Sequence record: MW650886.1
Reading direction: 5' to 3' (one strand)
Length of the DNA stretch: 64,000 bases
DNA from: Escherichia phage vB_EcoM-ZQ1
The translations under genes and the position numbers were made by a program. Positions 5,162 through 47,420 of this stretch are shown here, piece by piece. Position 1 is the stretch's first letter. Every line of letters starts with the position of its first letter. The notes below the pieces were generated by a model. That model did no database searches. It was not told where the DNA came from and saw only the letters and a list, made by a program, of their open reading frames with translations.

Positions 5162-5164
5162 CTA

Positions 5165-5175
5165 GGGGTATTTAG
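5165..5175 (-). promoter_or_regulatory. Late-promoter-like motif CTAAATACCCC (minus strand) at the start of the large tailspike gene
   Basis: Minus strand reads AAATACCCCTAGATGAAACGAACACATTTAGGGGTATTTGAAATG; motif is half of an 11-bp inverted repeat. Confidence 0.4.
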
Positions 5176-5183
5176 TTTTCACT

Positions 5184-6395: not shown

Positions 6396-6397
6396 TT

Positions 6398-7252
6398 TTA
6401 ACTCCTTGAACTTTCTAGGAATACAGTAAACCCAGCAGGATGGAAATGCTGACGGAAGACGCGATCAAACACACCTTCAAAATCAGATACGTTGCCAGGA
6501 ACTCTTATCACATACGTGAATTCATCATAGTAGTAATCGTCACGCATTCCTGTCGCGCCGTCACATTCAAAGTTGTCGTCCAGGCCACCAATTGCTTCCT
6601 TGGGATAATACACACTCACTGGGCAACCAAAGTAAATCCAGAAGAACAATTCAATCGCTTTCTTCGTCCCGCGAATGCGATAAATGTGTTTAAGTAACTT
6701 CAACCAGCGTACATGGTCCAGTGTCCGGCGTTCAGTTCCCTCGACATACACAGAGAGTGTGTCTCCGTCTGAAGTCACCAAACTGTCCGAACCAACTGGC
6801 ACAAACTTCCCGAACTCTAGGAAGGACTTATCAACCGTTCTCTGGAATCCAAAATCAGCATACCAATCGTCGATGCGTTCGTTCTTGTCTTCCATTGAGA
6901 TTAATGGCCGACCGTCCACGTCCAGCAAATCTTCGAAGTCTAGCGCCATCATGTTCTCAAACGTGCGCGTCAGGAACTTGTCTTCCAAGAAGTCTTTGGC
7001 CTCAGTACCTGGTGTCTTGCGCTTCTTGATGTCAATCAACTGCTCAATAGGAGACTGATCCGTATTTGGGTTCACCCAACCACCAGTGTCTGCCAGATAC
7101 GCCAAGATCTCCTCTTCGGTGAATCCCTGCTGTCGATACAACCAGTTGAAGAACGTATCCATAAACTCGATGAATACTGGGAATTCATTCTGGTAAAACA
7201 ATGGGGTTTCATATTTCACCCCATTGTGTCCGTTATTAAGATCTTTGGACAT
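6398..7252 (-). CDS. Hypothetical structural protein (baseplate or fibre-associated by context)
   Basis: 284-aa ORF overlapping the end of the upstream baseplate-like gene by 17 nt (translational coupling); no recognisable motif. Confidence 0.4.
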   Translation of the reverse strand: MSKDLNNGHNGVKYETPLFYQNEFPVFIEFMDTFFNWLYRQQGFTEEEILAYLADTGGWVNPNTDQSPIEQLIDIKKRKTPGTEAKDFLEDKFLTRTFENMMALDFEDLLDVDGRPLISMEDKNERIDDWYADFGFQRTVDKSFLEFGKFVPVGSDSLVTSDGDTLSVYVEGTERRTLDHVRWLKLLKHIYRIRGTKKAIELFFWIYFGCPVSVYYPKEAIGGLDDNFECDGATGMRDDYYYDEFTYVIRVPGNVSDFEGVFDRVFRQHFHPAGFTVFLESSRS

Positions 7253-9014
7253 AACGCACCTCCGGCTCCACAGTTACAGCACCGATGCGGAGCACCTGAT
7301 TCTGTGTGGCCTGAATGTTCTGGTCAAGACCGTCTGGAGACACAATTATTGTCACACCCTCAGTGTTGTAGTTAGATACTATGATACGCTGGAGTTCAAC
7401 AACGCCAGTCGCATAATCAACCGTTCCAACAGCTTGTACCAGATATTCCTTGGTTGTGTCTGTTGTACTCACCTTGTACATATTCAGGACACCACTGACG
7501 TCGCGTATGTAGTAAGTGAATTCGACCTCGGCCGGAAGCGGCTTAAACCCACTGATACGCACAGAACCAGACGCAATCGAGCGCCCATAATCGAATGTGA
7601 AGCTGTCCAGTACCCCATAGTCTGGCTTGAAATGGCGCTTATACTTCACAGAAGTGATGTTTGACACTATCGATCTGTCCATGTCGGTGATGGCCGACTG
7701 TAACTGCTCTTTATCGAACAGTTCGTCGAATCCTTCTAGATTCCCCAAACCCCAGTTAACAACACCGTTCTTCACGACTGTCTTCAACTGCTCTTCGGTA
7801 TAGGACGTGGAAGTCGGATCCCAGAACACGCGGGTGGTGACATCAACATAAGTCAGTTCAGCGTCGACAATCTTGGGTGTGATCGTGCCCACATTGTACT
7901 TGTCTAACGTCGCCACGATATCTGCCTTCTCAGCGTCCGAGAGCGCCTCACCAACAGAAGGTATCACAGCAATGTAAACGTATCCGGAGTCAGGCGGAGA
8001 GAGCGTGTCGCCGCCATATGCTTTGGCGCGGGAGACGTTGGAGAACAGACGCTCGGTCAACACAGCATAATCGACTTCGGCTACCGCCGCACCCTCAGCC
8101 TGATAAGCCAGCGGAGCAAGGCGCTTGATGTCCTCAATGCTCTCTGGGTCCGCACCGCCGGAAGAACGTTCTGACACCAGCTCAACATCTACAAGGTTGA
8201 ATCCCCCGATGGAAGACGCGGAGGACAAGGCAGTGATGTCATTGCCGTCTGCACCAGCTGTCTCCAGATACTGGAGGTACACGACGTTCCCGTCTTCTAC
8301 TCGCTTACAGATATACCCATCACCGAATTCGAACGTGTACATCCCGTCCAACCCCAGCTCAACGAAGTAGAGTTGCGCATACTGGCTCAAATCGAACGGG
8401 CTGACATATCGTGAGAAGGTAGACCGCACGTCAGATGTCTCAGATTCCTGCACCTGCACCACCATATGGTCGATGTCCACGGAAGAAGATGGGATCACAT
8501 AGGTAGAGATCGCGCTGCCTTCCACATCATAGGACTTGTACAGCCAGTTACCCTGTATGAGTTTGATGTTCTCGAACTTGTAAGAGCCGTCTACAAGAGA
8601 GGCACTCACAGGTTGGTCAACCGTGAAGTTATAGGATTTGCCATCCTTCACCCCAATGAACATCGCGCGGCGATCCATTACAATCGTTTCTGGAGCCGTG
8701 CTGGCGTCATATGGAGTGACTGTGACGTTTGCGTACAGGTACGCTGCCTGGTAGTTGTGAGGGGTGTAAGACAAGAACCCAGCCGCAAGACCGACATTAG
8801 AACGCTGTTGAGCAGAGTGAAGATGGCTTTCGCCATTCAGCATGTTCTGCATGAACCCGATAGAGTTGGCATCCGAGGCCAAGATACGCACGATTGCACT
8901 GAGACCAGAACCTTCAAAGTCATAATCCTTGAAAGTTGGATCAGCTTTCATGCGCTTCTTGATAAGATACTCGAAAGCCCTGACATCGAGTGAAGGGACT
9001 GTTTGCGTGGCCAT
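7236..9014 (-). CDS. Baseplate wedge protein (gp6 / baseplate J-like), assignment by size and context
   Basis: About 590-aa ORF; track start is a TTG at 9065, more likely ATG at 9014 (MATQTVPSL...); CTAAATA motif upstream; first gene of the minus-strand structural operon. Confidence 0.4.
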   Translation of the reverse strand: MATQTVPSLDVRAFEYLIKKRMKADPTFKDYDFEGSGLSAIVRILASDANSIGFMQNMLNGESHLHSAQQRSNVGLAAGFLSYTPHNYQAAYLYANVTVTPYDASTAPETIVMDRRAMFIGVKDGKSYNFTVDQPVSASLVDGSYKFENIKLIQGNWLYKSYDVEGSAISTYVIPSSSVDIDHMVVQVQESETSDVRSTFSRYVSPFDLSQYAQLYFVELGLDGMYTFEFGDGYICKRVEDGNVVYLQYLETAGADGNDITALSSASSIGGFNLVDVELVSERSSGGADPESIEDIKRLAPLAYQAEGAAVAEVDYAVLTERLFSNVSRAKAYGGDTLSPPDSGYVYIAVIPSVGEALSDAEKADIVATLDKYNVGTITPKIVDAELTYVDVTTRVFWDPTSTSYTEEQLKTVVKNGVVNWGLGNLEGFDELFDKEQLQSAITDMDRSIVSNITSVKYKRHFKPDYGVLDSFTFDYGRSIASGSVRISGFKPLPAEVEFTYYIRDVSGVLNMYKVSTTDTTKEYLVQAVGTVDYATGVVELQRIIVSNYNTEGVTIIVSPDGLDQNIQATQNQVLRIGAVTVEPEVRYVQRS

Positions 9015-9054
9015 GATAATCTCCATCACCTGAGTTTGAATATGGTGTTGAAGA

Positions 9055-9061
9055 TATTTAG
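9055..9061 (-). promoter_or_regulatory. Late-promoter-like CTAAATA motif upstream of baseplate gene
   Basis: Minus strand reads GGCTAAATATCTTCAACACC about 40 nt upstream of ATG 9014. Confidence 0.35.
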
Positions 9062-9368
9062 CCAACGGGAATCAAAACGCTCGCGCGCGTTTAATTTATT
9101 CGAATATAACTCGCGAGGGGGCTGACGCCCTCGCTCGTAACACCGCCCTGTGCGGGCAGCACCATTCCACAGCCATGGAGGCTGCTTCTCGTTGTTCGTT
9201 GACACTCACAACTCGAAGGGCACTGCGTTAGGATACAGTTTCTTGATGTTGTAGAAAAGTAGTTTTTACCTATTAATAAACCGAACTCCTATTTTGTTGG
9301 TCTTTAATTCAATAACACTTGCACGAATATAATAGCCCGGACAATCAACCGTTATCAAGGAACCTCTC

Positions 9369-9941
9369 ATGCATATCAACACTGCTGTATTAAAACACAT
9401 CATCCCTTTGTTAGAAAAATATGAAGGGAAAGTAATGTCTGAAGTGCCATTTGAGAAAATTCGCACCGAAATAAAGCACCTGACAAATAAAGATGTCAAT
9501 TACCGTCGTATCCTTTCTTCTGGGCTAGAACTTGCAAAGTCTGACTTCAAAACATCTTCGACATTCTCTTTTAATATCGATGCCACTACGACACTAATAG
9601 ATGAATTAACGCAGTCATCGCAATCTCGCCGCGACCGCTTTCGTCATTTGTGTGTTTCCAATGATTTCCCCAGCACCCGCGTTGGGATCAAATTGGAGGC
9701 GATTCGTTCTGACATTTGCTTCACGATAAATTATATTGTCGAGCCAGGCTCCCAACACATTTATTTTGCCGCAGTGATCGGTTTCTATGGCACTTCTATC
9801 AATGGGTGGGCTGAGCGCGTTGAATTAAAAGAGACACTGAACAAACACAGCACTCCTTCCACTCATTATATGTCACAGGCCGCTGCTCGTGAATATGTGT
9901 ATCTGATCGAGCGCGATGTGAAGTTAAAAGTGGTAAAATAA
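9369..9941 (+). CDS. Hypothetical protein
   Basis: 190-aa ORF with SD AAGGAACC; diverges from the minus-strand structural operon; no recognisable motif. Confidence 0.45.
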   Translation: MHINTAVLKHIIPLLEKYEGKVMSEVPFEKIRTEIKHLTNKDVNYRRILSSGLELAKSDFKTSSTFSFNIDATTTLIDELTQSSQSRRDRFRHLCVSNDFPSTRVGIKLEAIRSDICFTINYIVEPGSQHIYFAAVIGFYGTSINGWAERVELKETLNKHSTPSTHYMSQAAAREYVYLIERDVKLKVVK

Positions 9942-9998
9942 CGCTTTATTCAATAAAGAATTGCAGTAAAGTTAGTTGCATGGAAGGGAGGGAACACT

Positions 9999-10145
9999 AT
10001 GTTTTACATGATGTTACTCCTCATCCTTCTGATCGGGATTACCTTTACTCTCCTGGGTCTACCCGATCAGTCCGGTAAACAGTCGCCCACTTCGGCGCAT
10101 CCGGTTTTGTGCGAAGGTTCGTCCGCACTGCTGTGGGCAGTGTAG
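9999..10145 (+). CDS. Small hydrophobic peptide (47 aa, one predicted TM helix)
   Basis: ATG preceded by SD GGAGGG at 7 nt; MFYMMLLLILLIGITFTLLGLP...; below the 60-aa cutoff of the ORF track. Confidence 0.3.
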   Translation: MFYMMLLLILLIGITFTLLGLPDQSGKQSPTSAHPVLCEGSSALLWAV

Positions 10146-11923
10146 CTCAAAGAGGAGAGGACTTTTCAAATTAGCTGGGCTGCAGTAAAGTATTAAGCGT
10201 GAGGCGAACAACGCATCGAGTTAGGCATCTAAAGCCGACCTCGCTAATCCCAGTCTCAGGGGCATGCGTGAATAGAGGCGTGATATCCACCTTGCATGGT
10301 GTCAGTGGACGCACTTGACCGTCGGAGAACGAAACTCCCTGTTGTAGCGTGATTAGCTCAGAATCAGAGAGCACCCTGTTGGCAAGTCGACACCAACATA
10401 TAAGGGGAGGTCGGGGGCGCTAATCTCCATCACGCCGGCAACATTATGAGTCTTCCACAGAGGGTTCATAATGTTGCGTCAAAGGGCAACAAGGTTCCTG
10501 TTGGTTGAATTAACTTGATTCATAGTTCCTACTGATCTTCCCGGATTCGAAGGAGCACCAACAGGCGAGGCCGGATGCGTAAGTTCCGGTAAATCGATGG
10601 TGATACCCTCGCCAACAAAAATAAAAGGTTTTATCAATAACGGGTTACAAAGTATAGTTAACCCACTGAAGCGAAAAGCTGTTTGGGCATTAGACAAACA
10701 CTTCGATGTGAACCCAGGACATGGCGTCTTGTGCTCAAACAGGTTTTCGTTTTCGTTGTGAGTGACTTTGCGGGTTTTTAGAAACTGACCAAGCAAATAA
10801 CTGCTAATGATTCCGAAGTTCTGATGGCGGCGTAACAGCCTATAAGTCAGTGAGGTCTTCCGATTCCTCATCACCAAATTCGGCGCACTAAAATAGACGG
10901 GAGGGTGTGATTAATAATCTCCCGTCGACAATGCCGTTATATCTGACTGTCCAAAGGGGATAAGCTCCTGAGTAAGCAGAGGTGGGTTGCCTAAGTCAGA
11001 TGGGATGTAAGGTCAGCGCTGGCCAAGCATTTGGGTTCGACTCCTAAAAACGGCTCCACATCTTTGAGGATATTCTCACGAGTATCTTGAAAGATGTGAG
11101 CGAAGTCTTGCCATCAGCCCTGATCCCTGGCAGGTGAAGGGCACACAAATCGAAGTGCCTTGACAATTTATCTTAAACCCAAAGGTTGATCTACAAATTG
11201 GACGGCCAATCCGGTGGACGATAACAGCATATTGGGCTATACTGTTGAGTCAGGGCACTTCGATTTGTGAACTTGAGAGAGCGTTGGGTGAAATAGACCA
11301 TGCCTTGCAGATTGCGATGCCTACACATTCCGGACACTGGTGGGCACCAAGAAGAACTCAGTAGCAGACGAGCCATCAGGGTTAGCTACCCGGCGCGGCG
11401 AGGACTGGGAGGCCGAACTAAGGGGAAACCCGAGACAGGCGTAGTATTCTCAAGTTCACAAAATGAAGAGCATTTAAAGAGTTCGATTCTCTTTCAGGCC
11501 ATTCGTGGTGTGATGTGAGTCATGAATGTTCTTCATCTTTGGGTGATTCTATGTTGCCGGGCTATCAACCCATGCTTGCTAGAGCAACCAGCCAGCCTCG
11601 TTTGGTCCGAGCGTTAGAGGACAAGTTGCTTCTACATGGAAGCTGCGAGTTGCGACATTGGTTGCAACTTTGATGGCTCTGGATTTTATAAACCATGTCT
11701 ATGGGTGACGCGGGATCTTTAGTACCAGAGCTATCAAAGTTGTGTCCAACCCGATCTTACAAGCCCGTATCCCGGTCTGGTTAAGACTTGTAAGTGGAAA
11801 GCCCTGGAAAAATAAACGCCTGTGGCGAGGCTATGGTGCAAGCCAAAGACCCACAGAAGCGCATGCCGTGAGGCAGCACAAACAGGCATGCATGAACTGA
11901 TCATGTACAAACGGGATAAAGGG

Positions 11924-11954: not shown

Positions 11955-12031
11955 GGTCCTGTAGCTCAGTCGGTTAGAGCAGTGAACTCATAATTCATTG
12001 GTAGTTGGTTCAAATCCAACCAGGATCACCA
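11955..12031 (+). tRNA. tRNA-Met (anticodon CAT; could also be Ile-lysidine type)
   Basis: Hand-folded cloverleaf: acceptor GGTCCTG/CAGGATC, D-stem GCTC/GAGC, anticodon loop CTCATAA, T-arm GTTGG-TTCAAAT-CCAAC, encoded CCA. Confidence 0.85.
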
Positions 12032-12283: not shown

Positions 12284-12372
12284 GGAAGGTTGCCCGAGAG
12301 GTTTAAGGGACTCGACTGCTAATCGAGTGGGGCTTTTAGCCCCCGAAGGTTCGAATCCTTCACCTTCCGCCA
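12284..12372 (+). tRNA. tRNA-Ser (anticodon GCT), type II with long variable arm
   Basis: Acceptor GGAAGGT/ACCTTCC, D-stem CCC/GGG, anticodon loop CTGCTAA, variable arm TGGGGCTTTTAGCCCCC, T-arm GAAGG-TTCGAAT-CCTTC, encoded CCA. Confidence 0.85.
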
Positions 12373-13398: not shown

Positions 13399-13468
13399 TC
13401 CGAGATTCTCCTTTTCTATACTCCTGTAGATACACTATGATAAGCCAATGTCTACAGGAGAAAATAGA

Positions 13469-14662
13469 ATGAACAAGACCATCTTCGATATCCTTTCCCT
13501 CGACCGCAACCTGGTCCATTGGGAAGATTATCTCTACAAGCACACCCCGTGCGAACTTGTCGTCAACCACGAAACCAACCAGCAGGTCTGGTTCAAGCGT
13601 GAAGATTATTTTGCGCCGCTGTCCAATTATGCAAATGGCCAGCAGGGCATCAACGGCAGCAAACTCCGCCAGGCCATCTGGTTGATGGTTGAGCACCTCA
13701 AGGCCGGAGGCTCCCCTGACATCATCCATGGTACTGTCGTTGGTAGTCCGCAGTCCCCTATGGCGACGGCAGTCTCTCGGCACTTCGGCGGCAAGACAAC
13801 CACTGTACTCGGAGCGACCAAACCCACCACCTGTATGAACCATGAAATGGTGAAAATGAGCGCCTGGTTCGGTAGTGAGTTCAACTTCGTCGGCTCGGGT
13901 TACAACAGCACGATCCAGCCGCGCTGTAAGAAGTTGATCGAACAACAGAATCCAAAGGCGTATTATCTGGAGTATGGTATCACCCTCGACCATACAACCC
14001 ACTCCCCTGAGCGCATTGCTGGGTTCCATATGCTGGGTGGCGAGCAGGTTGCCAACATTCCTGATCACATTACTGACCTGATCATCCCAGCCGGATCGTG
14101 CAACTCTTGCACAAGCATCCTGACCGGGCTGGCAATGCATCCGAAGCCTAATCTGAAGCGTGTGTATCTGATTGGCATCGGTCCGAACCGCCTGGACTTC
14201 ATTGAGAGCCGTCTGCGCATCATCGGCAAACATGCCAATCTGCCGCACATTGTCGACTTCACCCGTCGTTATCACGACAACCCAGACTATGTACACGGCA
14301 AGAAGGAGCTTCAGCATGCCTCTAAGAGCGTTTCGCTGGCTGGCCTCCTAAGTGGTATCAGGCAGAAGGAAGAGCCAGAGGTCGTGCTTCCTCGCTTTGA
14401 GGTACACCATTGGGATCTTCATACCACTAATTGGGTTCGTTATAATGACCTGATGGAATATCAGTGGGGTGATATTGAGTTGCATCCTCGCTATGAAGGC
14501 AAGGTCATGACCTGGGTTCAGCAACACAAGCCCGAGTTGCTCAACGAGAACACTCTGTTCTGGATTGTGGGCAGCAAGCCGTACATTGAGCCAATGAAGG
14601 CTGCATGTCCTGAACTGGCTATCCCCGAAGCAGTACCTGTGAACGGATTCACCCCTTCCTGA
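13469..14662 (+). CDS. PLP-dependent enzyme, fold type II (ACC deaminase / D-cysteine desulfhydrase / tryptophan synthase beta-like)
   Basis: Motif GINGSKLRQAIWLM...GTVVGSPQSPMATAVSRHFGGKTTTV resembles the GGNKxRKL...QSNHxRxxAAxA signature of the family; start moved to the ATG with SD AGGAGA. Confidence 0.55.
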   Translation: MNKTIFDILSLDRNLVHWEDYLYKHTPCELVVNHETNQQVWFKREDYFAPLSNYANGQQGINGSKLRQAIWLMVEHLKAGGSPDIIHGTVVGSPQSPMATAVSRHFGGKTTTVLGATKPTTCMNHEMVKMSAWFGSEFNFVGSGYNSTIQPRCKKLIEQQNPKAYYLEYGITLDHTTHSPERIAGFHMLGGEQVANIPDHITDLIIPAGSCNSCTSILTGLAMHPKPNLKRVYLIGIGPNRLDFIESRLRIIGKHANLPHIVDFTRRYHDNPDYVHGKKELQHASKSVSLAGLLSGIRQKEEPEVVLPRFEVHHWDLHTTNWVRYNDLMEYQWGDIELHPRYEGKVMTWVQQHKPELLNENTLFWIVGSKPYIEPMKAACPELAIPEAVPVNGFTPS

Positions 14663-17201: not shown

Positions 17202-18619
17202 ATGACCGTTTTCTATACGAACGTTGCCCGCAGGGGTAATGACCTGTTGATTCGAATTGCAGATGACATGGGTAATCGCCGTCTGTTGAAAAAGAAATTC
17301 GAACCTACTCTCTATTTACCCACGGCTGACTATTCAAATGTTGAAAAGGTCGGTCTTCTCAATGAACCCCTGGTAGCCAAGCAGTTCCCTTCCATGCGTG
17401 ACGCTGACAACTATCTTGAAGAGTACAAGGAAGTCCAGGGTGCTGCCATTTACGGGCAGACCGATTATGCATACCAGTTCATCGCCCATAGCTTTCCTGG
17501 AAAGATTGAGCCGGATTATTCCAACATCCATATTGCTAACCTCGATATCGAAGTGTTCTCCGCCGGGTGGAAAGATGGAAAGATGACCAAAGGTCCATTC
17601 CCTCACCCAACCATTGAGCAGCAGACGTTCAAAGGGAATGAGGCGCGCATTCGCCGCTTCCATCAGCAGGTACTGGCCAACCATGACTTCATCCGTGAGC
17701 ACTTTCCCAGTTCCTTTATCAGCAACAACGTCACTGATCAGTTCCCTATCATTGACAGCAACGGCAAGATCACCCAAGACATGAATGCGGCGTTCCCCAT
17801 TACCCTGATCCAGCTTCAGGATATGGCGACCAATAAGTTCATGGTCTGGGGTATGCCCTGTGCCAAAGACCGCAATAAGTTCGCATACGACACCGAAGAC
17901 AAAGAGATCGGCGGCCTTGAGGTTGTTTATCAGGAGTTCACCACAGAACAAGATCTGCTGCGCTCGTTCCTAGACTTCTGGTCGGAGCGTCAGTTTGATG
18001 GCTGGACTGGCTGGAACATTGAGACGTTTGATAGCCCTTATCTTGTTGAGCGCATGAATCAGGTTCTGGGTGAGGCTGAAACGTCGCGCCTCAGTCCTTG
18101 GGGTATCATTAAGAAGCGTATCATTCGCGATAAGAAGGGCGATATCACGACGTATCAGTTCGTGGGTTGCCCTATGCTCGATTATATGCAGATCTACAAG
18201 AAACACACGTACACCACCCGTGAACGCTACTCTCTTGACTGGATTGCGTATTGTGAGCTGGGTGAGAAGAAGATGGACTACAGTGAGAGCAAGTCGCTCT
18301 TTGATCTGTACTTCAACGACTACTGCAAACACACCCGATATGGTATCAAAGACGTTAAGCTGGTATGGCGACTTGAACAGAAGCTGCGCCTGCTCCAACT
18401 GATGTTCGTCCTGGCCTACCGCACCAAGTCCAACTATGAAGACGGTCTGGGCACTGTGGCTCCGTGGCTGGCCATGTGCTACTATCGCCTGTACGAGAAG
18501 GGGATAGTGCCTAAGATCCAGCGTGTATACGATGGTCCGACCGACTTTGAGGGTGCATACGTCATGGATGTGACACCAGGAATCTACTTCTGGGTCTTCT
18601 CGGAAGATTTGAACTCCCT
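17202..18619 (+). CDS. DNA polymerase, family B (T4 gp43-like), exon 1 (N-terminal exonuclease half)
   Basis: Exo I motif NLDIEV; ORF terminates 5 codons after the sequence DLNSL, which is the first half of polymerase motif A. Confidence 0.75.
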
Positions 18620-19802
18620 TAAGTTAGCAGCATAGGGGCTTTGGTTGGCGACAACCATCGAATAACTCTCTTAATTGCTGGGAAGTCTCTTTAGAGATAA
18701 TCAGCAGCCAAGGTCGGCCACGAAGACCTAAATACTCTGTAACCACGGTGAAGGAGTAAGGTCATGAAGGAAATCAAGAGTCTGTTCTATCGAAATGATT
18801 TGGTAATTGAAGAATCTAAGATAGAAGAATATTTGAAGTTCTGTAAGGAACACAGTTATGATGGTGATGGATACAGTGAACGCCATCATGTACTGCCTCA
18901 GGCACATTATCCTGAGTTCTCTAAAGAAGAATGGAACATCGTAAACCTGTTGTACAAAGATCATGTGGAGGCTCATCGCCTATTGCATGAAGCATTACCA
19001 GAAGATAAATCAGCGTTCTTCGCCTACTTCATGATGAAATCCCATAACGGGGAACTAAGTGAGGAATTGAGAAGAAAGAATGTTGAAATGTTGACGGGAG
19101 AAGGGAATCCTTCGAAGAGGGAAGATGTCAGAAGAAAGATATCCAAATCTAAGAAGGGTGTTAAAAGGGCAGATATGAAGGGTAAGGCTTATTTCGGCGC
19201 TGATAAAGAAACAGCTGAAAGAATTAAAGCCAATTCCAGTCTTGTTCACAAAGGCACTGTCCCCGTAAGACTCCTGGATGGTAGTGTTATCAAAGTTTCA
19301 ACGCAAGACCCGAGATATTTGAGTGGTGAGTTGAAATGTATAATAGGTGCAAAGAAAGGTCAGGTGGGACCAAACACCGACCCAAAAGCGAAGAAGAAAT
19401 TTAAAGATTCTTTAGAGAAAAGGAAGGAAATGTTTGCCAGAATGAGTGGGGAAGAAATAACCACTCATTGCTTGACACAACAGGATTTAGGTAAGAAGAC
19501 TGTAGAGTGGGGCAAGTTGGCAAGAAACTTCAAACGACTCTTTGGTTACGCTGGGTTAAACCCAGATGATTTCCTTGAAGTAGTGGGCGACAAGGTTCAA
19601 CGACTATCGAAAGCAAGACCGACGACTAAGCGTCTGATCTGAAGCGAGTAGAGTAGGGGCAAGCGCCTCGAAATGGAGAGAATCTCTAGACAGTTCTGGA
19701 GATTGTGATATAGTCTGGCCTGTATGGTGACATACAGCAGTGTTCGGTAAACTGAATGACGAACACGGGGGATGAAATAGCGAGCATCCCTGAACACAAG
19801 CG
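18620..19802 (+). mobile_element. Putative group I intron carrying an HNH homing endonuclease, inserted in the DNA polymerase gene
   Basis: Splicing 18619 to 19803 restores the frame and yields DLNSLYPHII (motif A); exon 1 ends in U, intervening sequence ends in G; internal ORF has an HNH motif. Confidence 0.6.
18764..19642 (+). CDS. HNH homing endonuclease (intron-encoded)
   Basis: HNH motif ERHHVLPQAHYPEF...NIVNLLYKDHVEAH; NUMOD-like repeats GEGNPSKREDVRRKISKSKKG; SD AAGGAG. Confidence 0.7.
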   Translation: MKEIKSLFYRNDLVIEESKIEEYLKFCKEHSYDGDGYSERHHVLPQAHYPEFSKEEWNIVNLLYKDHVEAHRLLHEALPEDKSAFFAYFMMKSHNGELSEELRRKNVEMLTGEGNPSKREDVRRKISKSKKGVKRADMKGKAYFGADKETAERIKANSSLVHKGTVPVRLLDGSVIKVSTQDPRYLSGELKCIIGAKKGQVGPNTDPKAKKKFKDSLEKRKEMFARMSGEEITTHCLTQQDLGKKTVEWGKLARNFKRLFGYAGLNPDDFLEVVGDKVQRLSKARPTTKRLI

Positions 19803-21150
19803 ATATCCACACATCATTCAGCAGTACAACCTCGGTCCTGAGACTATCGTTGGCGACAAACACCAGCGCCGCGAGATTATTGAGGCTATGTGTGAAGAGC
19901 TGGCTGCTCAGATGAATAACATGGCAACGCCGATGCACAAACGTCGGTTGATGAAAGCCCTTCACGACAAGCTGTTGCGTGCGGTTGACGAACGCCTGCA
20001 GGTTGTTGATGAGTTGGTTGCCCTGGGTGAGTTCCACTTTGAAACCCTGCGCCGCTACAACGTGTCGTTCACGCCGAACGTTCAATTCTTCAGCAACGAG
20101 AAGATGTCGTTCCTGTCTGAAATCATGCGTGGTATCTACAGCGACCGTAAAGTAGAGAAGGCCAAGGGTCTGAAGTATGAGCAGTGGGCTGGCTGGTGTA
20201 AAGAGATGTCGAAGGGCGACTTCCATCTTGAGTCTGCCATAAAGTCTCGCTACTATGACCCAGAGTGGTATGAAGAGCACAAGAACATTGATCTTGATGC
20301 CCTGACCGAAGTGATGAAGAAGTGGGAAGATCTGGGTGTTGCTCAAGATACCCTACAGCAAGGTCTGAAGATCTTGATGAACGCAGGTTATGGCGCTATC
20401 TCGAACGTCTGGTTCAAAGAGTACTTCAACCTCAACATTGCCGAAGCCATCACCACATCCGGTCAGCTGATCAATAAGTGGAACAAGCGTTACACTGATG
20501 ACTATCTGAACAAGCTGTGTGGTACAACAGGCCAGGACTTCGTCATTGCAGGGGATACCGACTCCAACTACATCTGTATTGAGCGTCTTGTCAAGCAGTT
20601 GTGGCCTGATGTTACTGACCATCATGCTATGGTTGATAATATCGACCAATGGATCAAAGACAACTACCAGCCGAAGACCAATGAGTGGGCACAGCTTCTG
20701 TGTAACACCATGAACGGATTTGAACAGCGCATGGTGTGGGAGCGTGAGGTCATTGCGTCAGCCGCTGTCTGGCGAGCCAAGAAGATGTATGCCATGGCCG
20801 TGTACGACAGTGAGGGTATCAAGTACGAGAAGCCGAAGATCAAGTTCAAAGGTCTGGAAGCCCGCAAGTCCACCACGCCGGAATGGTGTCGTGAGCGTCT
20901 TGTTAAGTGCTATGAGAAGATCCTACTCGGCACCGAAGAGGAAGTACAGACGCTCATCTCCCAGTACAAAGAGGAGTACATGAAGCTCTCTGTAGACGAT
21001 ATCGCCAAGGCATCCGGTGTGTCCGACATAGAGAAGTGTGTGGCCGCCGACGGCTCGTTCATCTCTGGTGCTCACTATGCTGCCAAGGCTTGTGTGGGTT
21101 ACAACCGTCTGGTTGAGAAGAACGAAGACCTCGGGCCTGCCGATGATTGA
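19803..21150 (+). CDS. DNA polymerase, family B, exon 2 (polymerase half)
   Basis: Begins YPHIIQQYNLGPETIV (motif A continuation); motif B KILMNAGYGA; motif C VIAGDTDSNYI. Confidence 0.75.
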
Positions 21151-21446
21151 GTCGGGTGATAAGGTCAACATGGTACTGCTGAAGAATGGCAACCCGTTTG
21201 GCCAGAATTACTTCGCATACCTGAGTTCTTCCCCGAGGAGCTTGGTCTGGGCAAATGGGTGGATTATCAGGCGGCCTTTGAGAAGTCCTTCATTGATCCG
21301 ATTCAGTCTATCCTCGACGTGGTCGGCTGGTCACACAAGCGCCGTGTGAACCTTCTTGCCATGATGCAAAAGAAGAAAGGTTGATTCAATAAACCAAAGG
21401 GGGATATAATTCCCCCTGTTAACCCTTTGACAAACAGGTGATTGAA

Positions 21447-21788
21447 ATGAAACTCAATAAGATTCTTCTGGTGTGTGCTCTGGCTTTCTCTACCACTGCG
21501 TGTTCCACCCTTCTGGACGTTGCATCTACTGTAGACCTTGACGCGCCGACGTTCACCAATGAGCAGGCCGTGTCTAAGATGGAAGACACCATCAAAGCAC
21601 ATGCAGCACTGGACAACACTACCCCAGGTCCGCTCCAAACTGTCTGCAACTATGACGATTCCATCCAGGAAGACGAAACTTACCACTGCATCACCTACGT
21701 GAAGCAGGCCTCCGTCGTTCTGTATGCAGATTGTACCGAAGAACAGTGTGTTGCTACAGGCTACGATAAAGTTGAGGAAGACAAATGA
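21447..21788 (+). CDS. Putative lipoprotein
   Basis: Signal peptide MKLNKILLVCALAFSTTAC with Cys at the lipobox position; SD AGGTGA; track start 21438 is a GTG. Confidence 0.45.
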   Translation: MKLNKILLVCALAFSTTACSTLLDVASTVDLDAPTFTNEQAVSKMEDTIKAHAALDNTTPGPLQTVCNYDDSIQEDETYHCITYVKQASVVLYADCTEEQCVATGYDKVEEDK

Positions 21789-22561
21789 ACAACCTGGTTT
21801 GTATCTATGATATGAAATCAAAGGTCGGTGGCCTGTATCGCGTCCTCGTGGATGTTGACCTGACTTTGGTCGACAGCCTCTCCCCTTGGGTGCAGTGGTT
21901 CAACGAAGAGAATCTCAGCTTATCCAAGCATTATGACGGTCATGGACCAGCGCCGTTCCAGCCGATCACTAAAGAGTGTTATATGTCCCATGCTGGCGAC
22001 CTGGCTATTCTGATGCGTGAACGTGCGCATCCGGCGTGGCTATACCATGAAGTCCAATTGGGGCTGCACAAACAACGTGTGCCAAGCGGTAACGATCCTA
22101 TGGACTGGTGGCGTCGCCCTGACCTGTACGCCAAGATGAACCCACTTCCAGGCGCTTACGAGTTCCTGGTGAATCTGAAGAAGATTCTACTCGAAGACTT
22201 TGACAATGTTGAATTCATCGCAGTGTCCAAGTGTGAGCCGGAACACGAGCGCAGCAAGCGTCAGTTTGTCTATGACAAGTTCCCTGGTATCTTCAACGGG
22301 TTTGTCAGCACCGACGAAAAGCATCTGCTGGCTGGCGATGTCCTGATTGATGACAATCCGAAGTATGTCGAGCCATGCGGCCTGAACAACATCTTTGTCA
22401 TCTTTGTTCCTCAGGGCAATTATGAAAAACTGGATCTTTCGAATTCGGAAGACATGCTTTATATTAAACCAGTAGAAGGCCAGAATCACTTCGACTTCCT
22501 GAACCGCAATATTGTCGAAGTGGTGAACCGCCTGATTAGTCATTATCAATACGTCCGATAG
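21785..22561 (+). CDS. HAD-superfamily phosphatase (5'-deoxyribonucleotidase-like)
   Basis: HAD motif I VLVDVDLTLVDS (DxDxT) and C-terminal DD motif (VLIDDNPKY). Confidence 0.55.
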   Translation: MNNLVCIYDMKSKVGGLYRVLVDVDLTLVDSLSPWVQWFNEENLSLSKHYDGHGPAPFQPITKECYMSHAGDLAILMRERAHPAWLYHEVQLGLHKQRVPSGNDPMDWWRRPDLYAKMNPLPGAYEFLVNLKKILLEDFDNVEFIAVSKCEPEHERSKRQFVYDKFPGIFNGFVSTDEKHLLAGDVLIDDNPKYVEPCGLNNIFVIFVPQGNYEKLDLSNSEDMLYIKPVEGQNHFDFLNRNIVEVVNRLISHYQYVR

Positions 22562-22570
22562 GAGGACATC

Positions 22571-22876
22571 GTGCAAGAACAATCCAAGTTTGGGGAAACC
22601 CCAGACAAGCGTTCCGGTGATAGCGACATGGATAGCGTGATTAACCATGTGAACAACTTCATTCGTCAGCAGGAGACTCCAACTCCTATCGGTGCAGCCA
22701 AGGCTCTTCATGATATACTGGTGAAGATCGGCCAGCGCTCTGAAGCAGATGAAATCTTCTATAACTTCGACGACCAGTATAAAGTGAAGTTTGAAGAGAA
22801 TGGCCACCCACAGGTTGCTGTGTTCTGGGCACCTTGGCTGGGTGGCGTGAGCTGGCGTATTGAGGATGCTGTGTAA
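22571..22876 (+). CDS. Hypothetical protein
   Basis: 101-aa ORF. Confidence 0.4.
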   Translation: MQEQSKFGETPDKRSGDSDMDSVINHVNNFIRQQETPTPIGAAKALHDILVKIGQRSEADEIFYNFDDQYKVKFEENGHPQVAVFWAPWLGGVSWRIEDAV

Positions 22877-24474
22877 TGGCTCGCTACCATTACACATATA
22901 GGATAACTCATGTCCCAACTGGGAGATTCTACGTCGGGATTCGGTCTTGTTCATGCACCCCCGAACAAGACCCCTATATGGGTTCTGGTGTTATCATCAA
23001 AAGGTTGTTGGAATCTCACCCCGCTTCTGAATTCTTAAAGACGATAATAGAAAAGTTTGAAACCAGGTTGGAGGCGTCCGACCTGGAGTCTATTATTGTT
23101 ACGGAAGAGTTACTGTTGGACCCATTATGCCTGAACCTGAAATTGGGAGGAGACAATTCTATCATACCAAACCAATTTAAGGCGGCGTTGGCCAGGACTG
23201 GCAAGAAATACAAATCTGGTATAAATCCTTGGGATGATCCAGAATACCGGGAACGTGTAATAAAATCAATAAAGGAGAACAGGGGTAATTCTCCCTACCC
23301 ATTCATGGTTTCAAATGGTTATTGGTGGGTTTGGAAGGACGCCCGTAGGATCTATGATAGATGGGTGAACAACGGCGGTACTGTGAATCCTACCTGTATG
23401 CCAAAACGAGGATGTGGTTACAAATCTATCGGATTGTGGTATTCTAAACTACTGGACACAGAGTATCGTAATCTAAAGGGCGATGAGAGCGTCTTTCGTA
23501 ATATGATCGCCATGTTTAAAGATGGTTGGATTCCCAAAGAGGACAAACGTTTTATGACTATGATAAATTCTAGCGTGACGCCGGGTATTGTCGTTATTCG
23601 CGGGACAAGTGGAACGGGAAAGGGGACTCGTGTCGTTCAATTCCTTGAGTGGTTGAGAACCAAATATGAGCCAGAACTCATAGAATACGAATTCGACAAG
23701 AAGATGATCCAGGTTGGGTTTTGGTTCAAGGAAATCAATCTGGTGTTCATCGGCAAGTATACAGTGTCCAACAAATCAGGTCTAGCATCATGGACTTCTA
23801 TGGATTTCATACACTCCACTCTCAAGTCTTCTGAGATGGCCAATTCGTTGTTGAAGTATCTCAAAATAAAGTTCAAAGATGCAACTATCATCTTGGAGGG
23901 GGAACCTATGATGCAGAGCCATCGATGGCGTCCCGAGTTCGTACACCAGGACTTGGGGTTCAACAACATGGCATTCATCTCCTTTATTTACCAAGCGCGG
24001 GAAGATTACGACAAACGTATCATCGGTCGTTCTGGTAAGGCGGCGAAGGACACTGGCTGGGGAAGAAATGAACAATACACCAAGGATCACGTCAAGATCA
24101 TGGGTGAGTACGCTTCCATCGGATACGAACTTGAACCAGACTCTCAGAATGAGTTGTTCATTGCAAAGGCAGCGAATGAAAATGGTGTAAAGGCAGTTGG
24201 TTGGAATATACTGAAATTCTTCGATGCCCCTCTCCACTTTATTGGTAGTTTTATTATAGATTTTGTTGGATTGAGAGGGTTGTCCAAAGAAGAGTTTCAA
24301 AAATATTGCGACACCACACCAATGTTGCGCAAGATTAAGGGTAGCAACCCTTTGGCGCACAGAGTCCCTGAGAAGCCGCAGAAGGCATCCAAAACTAAAA
24401 CCAAGGCGAGCGCCCAGCCAGAAGCAACGAAGGCAGCGTCGCGCTCTCTCCTTGACCTGATGAAGAAGGGGTGA
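22876..24474 (+). CDS. P-loop kinase with GIY-YIG-like N-terminal extension (candidate 5-hydroxymethyl-dU DNA kinase-type enzyme)
   Basis: N-terminus YHYTYRITHVPTGRFYVGIRS resembles a GIY-YIG nuclease motif; Walker A GIVVIRGTSGTGKGT at about residue 235, preceded by an internal ATG. Confidence 0.5.
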   Translation: MARYHYTYRITHVPTGRFYVGIRSCSCTPEQDPYMGSGVIIKRLLESHPASEFLKTIIEKFETRLEASDLESIIVTEELLLDPLCLNLKLGGDNSIIPNQFKAALARTGKKYKSGINPWDDPEYRERVIKSIKENRGNSPYPFMVSNGYWWVWKDARRIYDRWVNNGGTVNPTCMPKRGCGYKSIGLWYSKLLDTEYRNLKGDESVFRNMIAMFKDGWIPKEDKRFMTMINSSVTPGIVVIRGTSGTGKGTRVVQFLEWLRTKYEPELIEYEFDKKMIQVGFWFKEINLVFIGKYTVSNKSGLASWTSMDFIHSTLKSSEMANSLLKYLKIKFKDATIILEGEPMMQSHRWRPEFVHQDLGFNNMAFISFIYQAREDYDKRIIGRSGKAAKDTGWGRNEQYTKDHVKIMGEYASIGYELEPDSQNELFIAKAANENGVKAVGWNILKFFDAPLHFIGSFIIDFVGLRGLSKEEFQKYCDTTPMLRKIKGSNPLAHRVPEKPQKASKTKTKASAQPEATKAASRSLLDLMKKG

Positions 24475-24476
24475 TC

Positions 24477-24674
24477 ATGAAACGGTTGTCTAATTATCTG
24501 TTGTTCATTGGTCTGGTTATGGCAGCCGTTTCAATGTGTACTGCCCTAGCCTATCATTTCACCCCTCTGGACTTAACAACCTCAGAGAAGTTAAACGTGA
24601 CTGTGATGTACTGTATTGGCGCGGTGATGTCTATCGGCGCTGCTGGTTACAAAATATTCAAGGAACCAAAATGA
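24477..24674 (+). CDS. Small membrane protein
   Basis: 65 aa, two hydrophobic helices; SD GAAGGGG; track start 24471 is a GTG. Confidence 0.4.
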   Translation: MKRLSNYLLFIGLVMAAVSMCTALAYHFTPLDLTTSEKLNVTVMYCIGAVMSIGAAGYKIFKEPK

Positions 24675-25048
24675 AAATTCAAATTCCTCGCGATGCTGTG
24701 GCTGTTGCGATCGACTACACCGGAAACGCCAAGCACATTACTGCCGTGCGCCTGATTCCTGAAAAGAACTGCGTCATCCCTCAGTTCCAACTGAATGCCA
24801 ATCCGTCATCCAAAGACTTTGGCAAGTGGTTGCAGGCTGCTCCGTTCCGTACCCAGACGAACGCTCAGATGTTCATCTCGAGTAAGACCCACACCGCAGC
24901 CCGTCTGTGGTTCGTGACCGCTGACCGTCGCTTTGTCGATATGTGGGAACGTCCGATGGGGTTCGTGAAGCCGGAAGATATTCAGCTGGCTCCTGAGCCT
25001 GAAGCTGTGGCTCCTGAAGAGGAAGCGAAAGATGCATCATTTATCTAA
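24671..25048 (+). CDS. Hypothetical protein
   Basis: 125 aa; ATG overlaps the upstream stop (ATGA); the track ORF 24536..25048 has an unlikely upstream start. Confidence 0.45.
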   Translation: MKIQIPRDAVAVAIDYTGNAKHITAVRLIPEKNCVIPQFQLNANPSSKDFGKWLQAAPFRTQTNAQMFISSKTHTAARLWFVTADRRFVDMWERPMGFVKPEDIQLAPEPEAVAPEEEAKDASFI

Positions 25049-26267
25049 AATGCCGACGGGCTATACGCCTCCGGCTGAATGGAAGTACCCGATTGACCTG
25101 GCTGTTGATTATCGCAAGCCTGAGAATCGCATGTACCTGCTCAAGGCTTGGGTGGAGGCGCTGTCCTACACAGAAGAGCACAACCAGCAGATGCGTCTGA
25201 TGGACTATGCGATCGAAGTCACTGAAGGCATCAGCCTCGAACAGAAAGTCGAGCGCAAGATCTGGATGGCATTCCTGTGGGGTTGTTGCTATAACGCCGT
25301 CGGGCCGTGGACGATCTACAGTGAGTTCCCTGTGCCGCCTCAGTCTAAGGAAGATATGCAGCGCTTCTCTGATTGGTACAACCTGAACTTTGATCGCATG
25401 CGATTCGATACCGACTGTCGCTACCGCAAGTCCAAGATGATTCCGTGTGTTCAGTCCTATATTGACTGGCTGGCTGGCCGTACTCAATATGACGCTTTCC
25501 GTGGGATGTTGGTGTGCATCGATAAGACAGAACAATTCACCCAGCTGTGGGACACGGCGATGTCCTGGAAATACTTCGGTCGCCTGAGCGCCTGGAACTT
25601 CCTGGAAGCCCTGAACATGGTATTCGGAAACGAATACACCATTGACGTCCCTGGCTTCATGTTGCGTGATCGTGATGGAAGCGAGTCCAACCGTAATGGC
25701 GCGGCGTTCTTGTCCAACCGTGACGATTGGGTGACTAAACACGGGAAGAAAAAGATCAACGGTTGTCCTATCATGGATGAAGAGTGTGACATCCTTGAGG
25801 CCGACCTTGAGCAGGCGTTCCAGGATTGTGTGGCTGAGTTCGGGCACCTGACGTTCATCAACCGCCTGAACTTTGAAACCTCCGGCGCTTGTTGGCTGAA
25901 GAAATTCTTCCGACTGAAGAATACCCGTTACATCGGGTGGGACGCAGAGCGTACTTGGGATGAGATAGACTACATGGAACGCGTCTGGCCTGAATACTCC
26001 TGCGCAGCGCTCTGGGAAGCCCGTTCGCTCTGGCTGCCAGATACCCTGTTGTGCGAAAAGGCTCCTGTAGGGCACGTTCCAGGCGTCCAGAAGTGGAAGA
26101 TGCCTGTATTCTTTGAGACTGGTGTTCCTCTGCATATCTGGCACCTGCAAAAGGGTACGCGCTGGGAACCATCCGAGGTATGTACGAACCTGAAGATGCC
26201 TGTGCGCAAGGTTGAGGACAAGTCGAAGTCCAGCAGCGTCAACCTCATGGCACTCTTGAAACGCTGA
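25032..26267 (+). CDS. Hypothetical protein (candidate DNA base-modification enzyme by context)
   Basis: 411-aa ORF directly downstream of the kinase; SD GAGGAAG; the antisense 369-aa ORF 25041..26150 is judged a shadow. Confidence 0.45.
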   Translation: MHHLSKMPTGYTPPAEWKYPIDLAVDYRKPENRMYLLKAWVEALSYTEEHNQQMRLMDYAIEVTEGISLEQKVERKIWMAFLWGCCYNAVGPWTIYSEFPVPPQSKEDMQRFSDWYNLNFDRMRFDTDCRYRKSKMIPCVQSYIDWLAGRTQYDAFRGMLVCIDKTEQFTQLWDTAMSWKYFGRLSAWNFLEALNMVFGNEYTIDVPGFMLRDRDGSESNRNGAAFLSNRDDWVTKHGKKKINGCPIMDEECDILEADLEQAFQDCVAEFGHLTFINRLNFETSGACWLKKFFRLKNTRYIGWDAERTWDEIDYMERVWPEYSCAALWEARSLWLPDTLLCEKAPVGHVPGVQKWKMPVFFETGVPLHIWHLQKGTRWEPSEVCTNLKMPVRKVEDKSKSSSVNLMALLKR

Positions 26268-26301
26268 TATAAATATCCTCGCCTATAAAGCGAGGATATT
26301 A

Positions 26302-26472
26302 TCATGTTACAAGATCTGTTGGTTTATGCGCTTCCTGGCGCGGTTGTCGGCTTCATCGCTGGTGCTCTGGTCTTCCGTAAACACGCGCAAGATGGTGAAG
26401 TGATTGTTCAGAAGGGTAAGGACATCCTGGAACAAATCGAAGCCAAGCTGGAAGAGCTGAAGAAAAAGTAAT
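26302..26472 (+). CDS. Small single-TM protein (56 aa)
   Basis: MLQDLLVYALPGAVVGFIAGALVFRK... followed by a charged tail; preceded by a hairpin containing TATAAATA. Confidence 0.35.
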
Positions 26473-26497
26473 CTGACTGGGTTGCTTCCTTCAATAA

Positions 26498-26536
26498 AGG
26501 GGAATGGGTTATTATTAGCCCGTTCCCCTTTCTTTT
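26498..26536 (+). terminator. Intrinsic terminator
   Basis: Stem GGGGAATGGG / CCCGTTCCCC followed by TTTCTTTTT; preceded by TTCAATAAA. Confidence 0.6.
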
Positions 26537-47105: not shown

Positions 47106-47420
47106 ATGACCCCATTAAAAGAAATGTATGAGCGTCTGGCTGAACTACAGGCGAAGGAAAAGCGCTTCTCAGAAGAAGAGTCTGAAATCGCCGAGCTGAA
47201 CAACCTGATTGCCACTCGTGAGAAGTACCTGCATCGCTACATTAATCACCCGCCGCGCATGGTAGACCGCGTCAGCACTATCATGGACCTGGATGAAGTT
47301 ACTCCTGGCAAAGAAATCATTGTCAGGGAAGTCCACCAGATGGTCGCCATGGGTCAGATCTTTGGTCGTGCAGACCAAGACGACATGATCTTCCTCCTTG
47401 AAAAGAAACTGGTGATGTGA
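47106..47420 (+). CDS. Hypothetical protein
   Basis: 104 aa; SD GAGGAA. Confidence 0.45.
   Translation: MTPLKEMYERLAELQAKEKRFSEEESEIAELNNLIATREKYLHRYINHPPRMVDRVSTIMDLDEVTPGKEIIVREVHQMVAMGQIFGRADQDDMIFLLEKKLVM

Follow-up and report, generated by a model that had tools for sequence, protein, structure and literature searches.

A predicted ViI-type thymidine hypermodification cluster in Escherichia phage vB_EcoM-ZQ1, with a DNA kinase domain joined to a Seg-like homing-endonuclease module

We analyzed a 64,000-nucleotide stretch of Escherichia phage vB_EcoM-ZQ1 (sequence record MW650886.1; referred to here as the window), in which a first-pass annotation had marked positions 21785 to 26267 as a candidate DNA base-modification gene cluster. 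This region is predicted to encode the post-replicative half of the thymidine hypermodification pathway described for phage ViI, a reading to which we assign a probability of about 0.88. The suggestion of post-replicative thymidine hypermodification was borne out by three proteins, an amino acid:DNA transferase (ADDT), a kinase of the HMUD2 family, and a pyridoxal phosphate (PLP) enzyme, all of which are orthologs or homologs of ViI pathway enzymes. From these comparisons, the product expected is 5-(2-aminoethoxy)methyl-deoxyuridine (5-NeOmdU). The system is not an unknown one; Lee et al. (2018, 2021) have described it and named LIMEstone among the carriers, and such modification is ordinary for the ViI-like family. 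The fusion of the kinase to a homing endonuclease and the exchange of the two as a cassette are apparently a modest, undescribed variant of it.

The five open reading frames (ORFs) that the annotation had named are all conserved genes on the + strand at the positions given below, but two further ORFs, of 67 and 116 amino acids (aa), had been missed. The cluster does lie downstream of the DNA polymerase gene as claimed, but not directly, as the 116-aa ORF intervenes. Similarly, the cluster was said to end in a terminator, and a strong one exists, but none follows position 26267; it is located at 26496..26531, past a 55-aa ORF. LIMEstone1 carries a terminator annotation at the equivalent place, and this terminator closes the transcription unit of the cluster. 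The features of the cluster are as follows.

21438..21788, + strand, DUF7292 protein, lipoprotein-like, 116 aa, between the polymerase and HAD genes
21785..22561, + strand, NT5C protein of the HAD superfamily, 258 aa (Pfam NT5C)
22571..22876, + strand, DUF7254 protein, 101 aa (Pfam DUF7254)
22876..24474, + strand, Seg-like endonuclease plus HMUD2 kinase, 532 aa (phrog_314, Pfam HMUD2)
22876..23553, + strand, Seg-like GIY-YIG homing-endonuclease module, aa 1 to 226 of the 532 (phrog_314)
23554..24474, + strand, HMUD2 kinase domain, in the same ORF as the Seg module (Pfam HMUD2)
24471..24674, + strand, protein with two hydrophobic segments, 67 aa (phrog_4514)
24671..25048, + strand, 125-aa protein (phrog_4163 only)
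25032..26267, + strand, ADDT, 411 aa (Pfam ADDT)
26304..26471, + strand, ORF with one transmembrane segment, 55 aa
26496..26531, + strand, intrinsic terminator (16-bp stem, 7 GC pairs, then a T run)

The 411-aa protein had been described as an enzyme without a nameable motif, for which profile searches against glycosylase and pyrophosphorylase-like modification families were proposed. The search identified it as a member of Pfam PF18724 ADDT (E value of 3.2e-59; 200.9 bits against a cutoff of 26.2; profile positions 2 to 228 of 232), a pyrophosphorylase-like family formerly called alpha-glutamyl/putrescinyl thymine pyrophosphorylase clade 2 (aGPT-Pplase2). The protein is 89% identical to ViI gp247 over all 411 aa. 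In vitro, gp247 transfers L-serine, via the side-chain oxygen, onto 5-phosphomethyl-deoxyuridine (5-PmdU) in DNA, and its activity requires a conserved cysteine and a nearby glutamate (PMC8989533); Cys247 is the cysteine reported for PUGT of phage PaMx11. In an alignment of 21 homologs, which included gp247 and extended down to 39% identity, residues E282, T283, and C287 were invariant. These residues are carried by the active-site motif N-x-E-T-x-x-x-C-W-x-K-K, and the blocks DTDCRYRK and GSESNRNG were also invariant. We infer from these comparisons that the 411-aa protein is an amino acid:DNA transferase and an ortholog of the serine:DNA transferase gp247. Its AlphaFold2 model (pLDDT of 87.4) is all helical, and the top three PDB matches in a fold search were to PaMx11 gp46/PUGT (8z2m/8z2n), with a probability of 1.0 and TM-scores of 0.57 to 0.61. 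AGOG, an 8-oxoguanine glycosylase, ranked seventh. The modeled fold thereby matches the helical, DNA-glycosylase-like fold of PUGT.

The second enzyme is encoded by ORF 22876..24474, which had been annotated as a P-loop kinase. It does contain a kinase, but the ORF has two domains, the kinase accounts for only aa 236 to 531, and the homing-endonuclease half had been missed. The kinase domain appears to be a clade-2 DNA kinase (HMUD2) acting on 5-hydroxymethyl-deoxyuridine (5-hmdU). It matches PF18747 HMUD2 over profile positions 2 to 298 of 298 (E value of 3.8e-156), has an intact Walker A motif (GTSGTGKGT), and is 47% identical over 305 aa to ViI gp243. Both gp243 and a second ViI kinase, gp67, phosphorylate 5-hmdU in DNA (PMC8989533). 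The characterized HMUD2 members are stand-alone proteins of about 300 aa, and the 532-aa ORF in the window differs from them in architecture. A fold search with the full 532-aa model returned only P-loop nucleoside monophosphate (NMP) kinases and so bears on the kinase fold only.

Many GenBank records name the kinase "guanylate kinase" or "thymidylate kinase." These names, the NMP kinases returned by the fold search, and the fact that NT5C enzymes act on free deoxynucleoside monophosphates (dNMPs) would fit ordinary nucleotide-pool enzymes (a guanylate or dNMP kinase and a 5'-nucleotidase) working on free nucleotides, with no DNA-modification cluster present. We consider this scarcely credible, as the ViI homolog gp243 moves 32P to DNA and not to nucleotides (PMC8989533), the DNA-glycosylase-like fold of ADDT matches a DNA-bound crystal structure, and the kinase was next to ADDT wherever genomes were examined, unrelated marine phages among them. 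The two genes are less than 600 bp apart in the window, in the contigs L007, L008, and L011 described below, and in Dickeya phage Coodle (L012).

It is also very unlikely that ORF 22876..24474 is only a selfish homing endonuclease whose kinase half is a dispensable remnant, with a gp67-type kinase encoded elsewhere in the genome carrying out the phosphorylation. The two paralogous ViI kinases both phosphorylate 5-hmdU DNA in vitro, and one may be redundant; moreover, the authors of the LIMEstone paper classed the ORF as a free-standing SegB-like endonuclease, F-LimXI, with no mention of the kinase half. However, constraint within the cluster is strongest on the kinase domain (dN/dS, the ratio of nonsynonymous to synonymous substitution rates, of 0.048 versus Dickeya phage LIMEstone1). 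The virtually full-length HMUD2 match with its intact Walker A motif and the retention of the kinase half in all fused lineages down to 38% identity likewise argue for a working kinase.

The third enzyme is encoded upstream of the cluster. The annotation had placed a PLP enzyme there and a dCMP deaminase downstream. The former is confirmed, with its start at 13448 (possibly 13469, as annotated) and its end at 14662, and the latter matched Pfam dCMP_cyt_deam_1 (E value of 9e-16).

13448..14662 (start maybe 13469), + strand, PLP-dependent decarboxylase, ortholog of ViI gp226
47417..47926, + strand, dCMP deaminase (dCMP_cyt_deam_1), syntenic with ViI orf33
62890..63975, - strand, uvsX, at the right end of the window

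Over 395 aa, the PLP enzyme and ViI gp226 share 91% identity, and K72 of the PLP enzyme aligns with K92 of gp226, the proposed PLP-binding lysine. The match of the PLP enzyme to Pfam PALP (E value of 8e-8, 32.4 bits) is under the 35-bit cutoff. ViI gp226 decarboxylates O-seryl-thymidine to 5-NeOmdU (PMC8989533). The earlier survey of Lee et al. listed LIMEstone among the ViI-like 5-HMUDK phages and concluded that the group "likely" contains 5-NeOmdU; this 301-Da nucleoside was measured for ViI, CBA120, CBA6, and 1.255.O only (PMC5889632).

The same kinase and ADDT chemistry could instead lead to another 5-hmdU-derived product, either with a different amino acid or as O-seryl-thymidine left undecarboxylated. 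ADDT family members differ in their donors, with glycine used in M6 and PaMx11, putrescine in PhiW-14, and serine in ViI (PMC8989533). The kinase allele shares only 47% identity with the ViI kinase that was tested, and the chemistry of Aglimvirinae DNA was not found in the literature searched. We nevertheless regard a different product as improbable, since the ADDT (89% identity) and the decarboxylase (91%) match their ViI counterparts over the whole length, the glycine and putrescine transferases are too distant to be detected by phmmer, none of the tailoring enzymes (radical S-adenosylmethionine, flavin adenine dinucleotide-dependent, or acetyltransferase) is encoded nearby, and 5-NeOmdU was predicted across the ViI-like group (PMC5889632).

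Several points weigh against the proposed ViI-type pathway with 5-NeOmdU as its product. The presence of 5-NeOmdU in this phage is predicted from orthology. The 11% divergence of the ADDT from gp247 could in principle extend to the residues that select serine and so alter the amino acid donor. Similarly, the kinase has diverged from the tested gp243 far more than its neighbors have from theirs, and its specificity could differ. The link between the ADDT and PUGT comes from the fold search only, with a modest TM-score (0.57 to 0.61); neither phmmer nor a profile built from the 21 sequences gave any match to PDB sequences at an E value of ≤1, so that this link is absent by sequence. The role of the HAD phosphatase in the pathway is only a guess. 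Finally, the thymidylate-synthase homolog, the dUTPase, the gp67-type kinase, and a gp160-type aGPT-Pplase1 lie outside the window and were seen only in relatives.

The ViI-type pathway would proceed in this phage as follows. In the pre-replicative steps, as the family suggests, dCMP deaminase and dUTPase would supply dUMP, which the thymidylate-synthase homolog would convert to 5-hmdUMP; after conversion to the triphosphate, the phage B-family polymerase would put 5-hmdU into DNA. The NT5C-type HAD phosphatase may trim the competing dTMP pool, although this step is conjectural. In the post-replicative steps, each of which was shown for the ViI ortholog unless noted, the HMUD2 kinase domain would transfer the gamma-phosphate of ATP to the 5-hydroxymethyl group, yielding 5-PmdU. 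C287 of the ADDT would then attack C6, with E282 as the acid, and the phosphate would leave to give an exocyclic methylene (a proposed mechanism), to which the hydroxyl of free L-serine would add, forming O-seryl-thymidine. Decarboxylation by the PLP enzyme would complete 5-NeOmdU.

The genes for the pre-replicative half of the pathway are expected to lie just outside the window, because of the gene order in Escherichia phage PC3 and ViI. In PC3 (97.3% identical), the genes just past the position corresponding to the right end of the window encode an ACT-like protein, a dUTPase, a small kinase-like protein, a thymidylate-synthase homolog, and HMUDK_HMUD1, and ViI orf62 to orf67 have the same arrangement.

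The window belongs to a ViI-like phage of the Aglimvirinae (Ackermannviridae). A megablast search with 21785..26267 matched 277 phage records, whose names give enterobacterial hosts in all except two, and the matched phages were Ackermannviridae wherever checked. The nearest was Enterobacter phage fGh-Ecl02 (98.7% identity), followed by Salmonella phage vB_CECAV_050 (97.8%) and Escherichia phages YX22, PC3, and PH4 (97.3%), with the Limestonevirus group at about 90%. The gene order of the cluster corresponds one for one to ViI orf236 to orf248, and the PLP gene is located upstream of the cluster in the window and in ViI (orf226) alike. Compared to LIMEstone1, the cluster ORFs have dN/dS values of 0.05 to 0.18 at dS values of 0.17 to 0.58, and a Pfam or PHROG family was found for every one of them, indicating that these are conserved genes under purifying selection rather than chance ORFs. 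NCBIfam had no model for any of the cluster proteins.

The feature that sets this cluster apart from that of ViI is the N-terminal part of the 532-aa ORF. Aa 1 to 227 matched phrog_314, "homing endonuclease" (E value of 2.9e-24), and tblastn matched the module to T4 SegB and to further genes annotated as Seg-like. An exhaustive search found the module to be at most 57% identical to free-standing Seg-like proteins of 150 to 350 aa. The alignment with one such protein, the 246-aa P0236, spans aa 3 to 228 and takes in the C-terminal "FK-x-GW-x-P-x-ED" end, which indicates that the module is probably a complete Seg-like endonuclease, with both the catalytic domain and the DNA-binding tail, and not a fragment. 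The module and its free-standing homologs have in common the pattern Y-x-Y...Y-V-G...Y-x-G-S-G...E...N-L-x-x-G-G, and the AlphaFold2 model has a strand-strand-helix-strand-helix core with a pLDDT of about 90. Pfam PF01541 GIY-YIG was not matched by the module, SegE_GIY-YIG was matched only weakly (E value of 0.077, compared to 2.8e-4 for the L011 homolog), and phmmer against PDB returned only noise.

The ORF starts in the same context as the ViI kinase gene ("...attgaggatgctg..taATGGC"), and both proteins begin with "MA." The Seg module sits where the ViI kinase begins. A candidate internal start for the kinase is present at ATG 23554/23560, behind AAAGAGGA at 23536..23543. In all four fused lineages, a purine-rich, Shine-Dalgarno-like motif precedes the junction methionine by 9 to 11 nucleotides, despite differing amino acids; the methionine so preceded is the first of two nearby methionine codons in the window and LIMEstone1 and the methionine conserved in all lineages in the other fused lineages. 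The presence of this motif and methionine in every fused lineage suggests that both the fusion protein and a separately initiated, stand-alone kinase are possible.

All kinases more than 51% identical to that of the window are fused forms of 495 to 532 aa. The contigs L007 and L008, with polymerases 67 to 69% identical to that of the window, carry fused genes in which the Seg module is 64 to 65% and the kinase 63 to 64% identical. A fused gene is also present in the Pseudomonas-phage-like contig L011, with 38% identity over the full length, directly upstream of ADDT. The fusion is rare: it is carried by about 28 of 488 phage records, and the fused architecture made up two 50%-identity clusters among the matches listed from 1.84 billion representatives. 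The Seg half has a dN/dS of 0.18 versus LIMEstone1. Together, these comparisons point to a fusion that is old and selected. A recent accident or a sequencing artifact was rejected as its origin, given the 28 phage records, the three further lineages extending to 38% identity, and the purifying selection. No published description of the fusion was found in a literature search of limited coverage, and the words "homing" and "fused" are absent from the main text of PMC8989533.

In L011, the stretch 6385..11054 encodes a 537-aa Seg::HMUD2 fusion; ADDT comes after it, and then an ORF of 196 aa and a protein of 402 aa that has the Pfam HMUDK_hel domain. This arrangement suggests a second hypermodification cluster, of another kind, in which the same type of fused kinase is central.

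Identity to ViI drops locally around the endonuclease, to 75% for NT5C, 73% for DUF7254, 47% for the kinase, 33% for the 67-aa ORF, and 58% for the 125-aa ORF, compared to 85 to 92% on both sides of this dip. ViI has a polymerase 87% identical to that of the window, yet carries the stand-alone kinase allele, while phages with polymerases only 67 to 69% identical share the fused allele, at 63 to 65% identity. The distribution of kinase alleles, with the closer ViI stand-alone and the more distant L007 and L008 fused, therefore disagrees with the genome tree. A direct replacement was seen between LIMEstone1 and the nearly identical Dickeya phage Coodle (MH807820.1). From 125 nucleotides before the kinase stop codon onward, the identity of Coodle to LIMEstone1 is 99.06%, and upstream of where the endonuclease starts it is 88%. 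Between these flanks, Coodle has a different, separate gene for an I-TevI-like GIY-YIG protein of 228 aa, which matches Pfam PF01541, and a kinase of the ViI type that is 72% identical to gp243.

Swapped kinase locus: L012 (Coodle) 4322..5930 versus L002 7092..8687, with identity of 88% in the left flank and 99% in the right flank

The comparison suggests that two unrelated GIY-YIG endonucleases, each with its own kinase allele, occupy one site and that the endonuclease and the kinase allele behave as a mobile cassette exchanged among related phages. Marker exclusion is established for the Seg endonucleases of T4, and the pattern in Coodle and LIMEstone1 would be that expected from endonuclease-driven marker exclusion. 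Public records misname the stand-alone Coodle kinase "homing endonuclease F-LimXI," which we attribute to annotation transfer, as the LIMEstone ORF is listed as F-LimXI.

We tentatively raise the possibility, which we hold to be rather unlikely, that Seg::kinase is a selected bifunctional protein in which a nuclease or DNA-binding module is coupled to the kinase that starts hypermodification. In one version, the endonuclease could cut a rival kinase allele or the under-modified DNA of co-infecting Ackermannviridae, with its own allele being resistant. In another, the DNA-binding tail could help to choose which 5-hmdU sites are phosphorylated. If the bifunctional reading were true, the kinase locus would be a battleground of competing endonuclease-kinase cassettes.

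Among the accessory ORFs, the HAD-type phosphatase recognized in the annotation was supported by its match to Pfam NT5C (E value of 2.8e-8; 34.3 bits against a cutoff of 24.8), in which only aa 108 to 197 align, and by the HAD motifs DxDxT ("DVDLT" at aa 23 to 27) and "DD" (aa 189 to 190). The protein, 75% identical to ViI orf239, is probably a homolog of NT5C-type 5'(3')-deoxyribonucleotidases. Its position is kept in the distant syntenic contigs L007 and L008, and L011 likewise carries an NT5C gene. No NT5C gene was found at the ParB-Tet/JBP-type ADDT loci of marine phages (L009 and L010). Phages that oxidize thymine in DNA would need no manipulation of the dTMP pool and are without NT5C, which makes a role in shaping the pyrimidine dNMP pool, e.g., by dTMP removal, plausible; we offer this as a guess from few cases and from co-location in the Ackermannviridae.

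The marine metagenome loci themselves (L009 5860..9077 and L010 5757..9179) have the gene order ParB, Tet/JBP dioxygenase, small P-loop kinase, and ADDT, and their ADDT homologs are about 42% identical to that of the window. The Tet/JBP row represents a route to 5-hmU by oxidation of T at the DNA level, as in phage T-dioxygenases (PMC13229309).

No role could be assigned to the 101-, 67-, and 125-aa ORFs. The 101-aa DUF7254 protein (Pfam E value of 1.4e-51; dN/dS of 0.14) has a GTG start behind AGGAGGA, and its gene is always between NT5C and the kinase in the Ackermannviridae (ViI, LIMEstone1, L007, and L008). The 67-aa ORF, with two transmembrane segments, matched phrog_4514 (E value of 1.5e-34) and corresponds to ViI orf244 (33% identical). 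The 125-aa protein corresponds to ViI orf245 (58% identical) and belongs to phrog_4163 only; Pfam and NCBIfam searches gave no match. Counterparts of the 125- and 67-aa proteins, both of which diverge fast, were undetected in L007 and L008. The annotation had counted the 125-aa ORF among the enzymes of the cluster, and we rejected it as a pathway enzyme, as its family is solely a PHROG of unknown function and no homolog was detected in L007 or L008.

The DNA polymerase gene upstream of the cluster is interrupted in the window.

17202..21384, + strand, family B DNA polymerase, with two blocks of 87% identity to its ViI homolog
18620..19802, + strand, group-I-like intron of 1183 nucleotides, defined by exon junctions versus relatives
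18764..19642, + strand, HNH homing-endonuclease ORF within the intron

This polymerase would have to incorporate 5-hmdUTP. The last base of exon 1 is U (18619) and that of the insert is G (19802), and the joined exons restore the codons S-L-Y-P-H. The intron is lacking in fGh-Ecl02 and ViI, is present as a 466-nucleotide, ORF-less form with identical ends in PC3, and contains the HNH gene in the window and LIMEstone1. Rfam did not find the intron at the gathering threshold; a sub-threshold Intron_gpI match (28 bits, E value of 8.6e-5) covers 19477..19737. An intein was rejected, since the length of the insert, 1183 nucleotides, is not divisible by 3 and the frame of the N-terminal part meets a stop 5 codons in. 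Toward its 3' end, the polymerase gene has gained one nucleotide within 21124..21141 (+1) and lost one within 21212..21225 (-1), changes that PC3, LIMEstone1, ViI, and fGh-Ecl02 all lack. Stop codons occur in the normal frame from 21148, and from one indel to the other the conserved peptide can be read in the +1 frame. This pair of indels is either a sequencing error or the mark of a truncated or recoded C terminus.

Between the polymerase and DUF7292 genes, there is a perfect hairpin, GGGGGATATAATTCCCCC, at 21399..21416, with an embedded TATAAT and a single occurrence in the window. About 60 nucleotides around it are nearly invariant among ViI, LIMEstone1, PC3, and the window, while the adjoining coding DNA differs by 10 to 25%. 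The hairpin is probably a regulatory element, either a promoter or a terminator. Directly 3' of the ADDT stop codon and 29 nucleotides before the 55-aa ORF is TATAAATA (26268..26275), which resembles a T4-type late promoter; this T4-type late-promoter consensus has only three copies in the window. Two tRNA genes, Met-CAT (11955..12031) and Ser-GCT (12284..12372), lie in an ORF-poor stretch upstream of the PLP enzyme gene.

In ViI, about 40% of T is replaced by 5-NeOmdU, which blocks many restriction enzymes. Ackermannviridae DNA with this type of modification was reported to resist cutting by about 60% of commercial restriction enzymes (cited in PMC11721090). Such modification has consequences for the use of phages in therapy and biocontrol, for host range, for sequencing, and for the engineering of phages. 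For annotation, the "411-aa unknown" becomes a predicted serine:DNA transferase, and the name "F-LimXI" would conceal a second 5-hmdU DNA kinase. The fused cassette is also a small natural experiment on selfish endonucleases that reshuffle DNA-modification genes.

Compared to known systems, the cluster is most like that of ViI. The order of polymerase, DUF7292, NT5C, DUF7254, kinase, two small ORFs, and ADDT is the same in both, as are the upstream PLP enzyme and the downstream dCMP deaminase, and the identities are 89% for ADDT, 91% for the PLP enzyme, and 75% for NT5C. Unlike ViI, the window has a kinase allele that is 47% identical and carries the N-terminal, 226-aa Seg-like GIY-YIG module, and its polymerase gene has an intron with an HNH gene. 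In contrast, LIMEstone1 ORF184 to ORF190 (Limestonevirus; Adriaenssens et al. 2012), fGh-Ecl02, and PC3/PH4 have the cluster and the terminator as in the window, including the fused ORF (531 to 532 aa, 94 to 100% identical), which their records name only "homing endonuclease F-LimXI" or "hypothetical."

The ADDT has a fold in common with the 5-PmdU glycinyltransferase PaMx11 gp46/PUGT (8z2m and 8z2n; Foldseek probability of 1.0) and M6 gp51, and a covalent Cys-C6 mechanism with phosphate elimination has been proposed for these enzymes, as for the ADDT. However, PUGT is only 13 to 15% identical to the ADDT of the window and about 120 residues shorter, and its donor, like that of M6 gp51, is glycine via an N-C bond, whereas the ADDT of the window would use serine via an O-C bond. 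As for the endonuclease, aa 1 to 226 align with T4 Seg-type GIY-YIG enzymes (SegB and others) over the catalytic and DNA-binding parts, and the flanking genes in the window show the divergence and allele replacement expected from endonuclease-driven co-conversion. Unlike the free-standing Seg enzymes of T4, the endonuclease in the window is translationally fused to the product of the neighboring gene, and this fusion persists to 38 to 42% identity.

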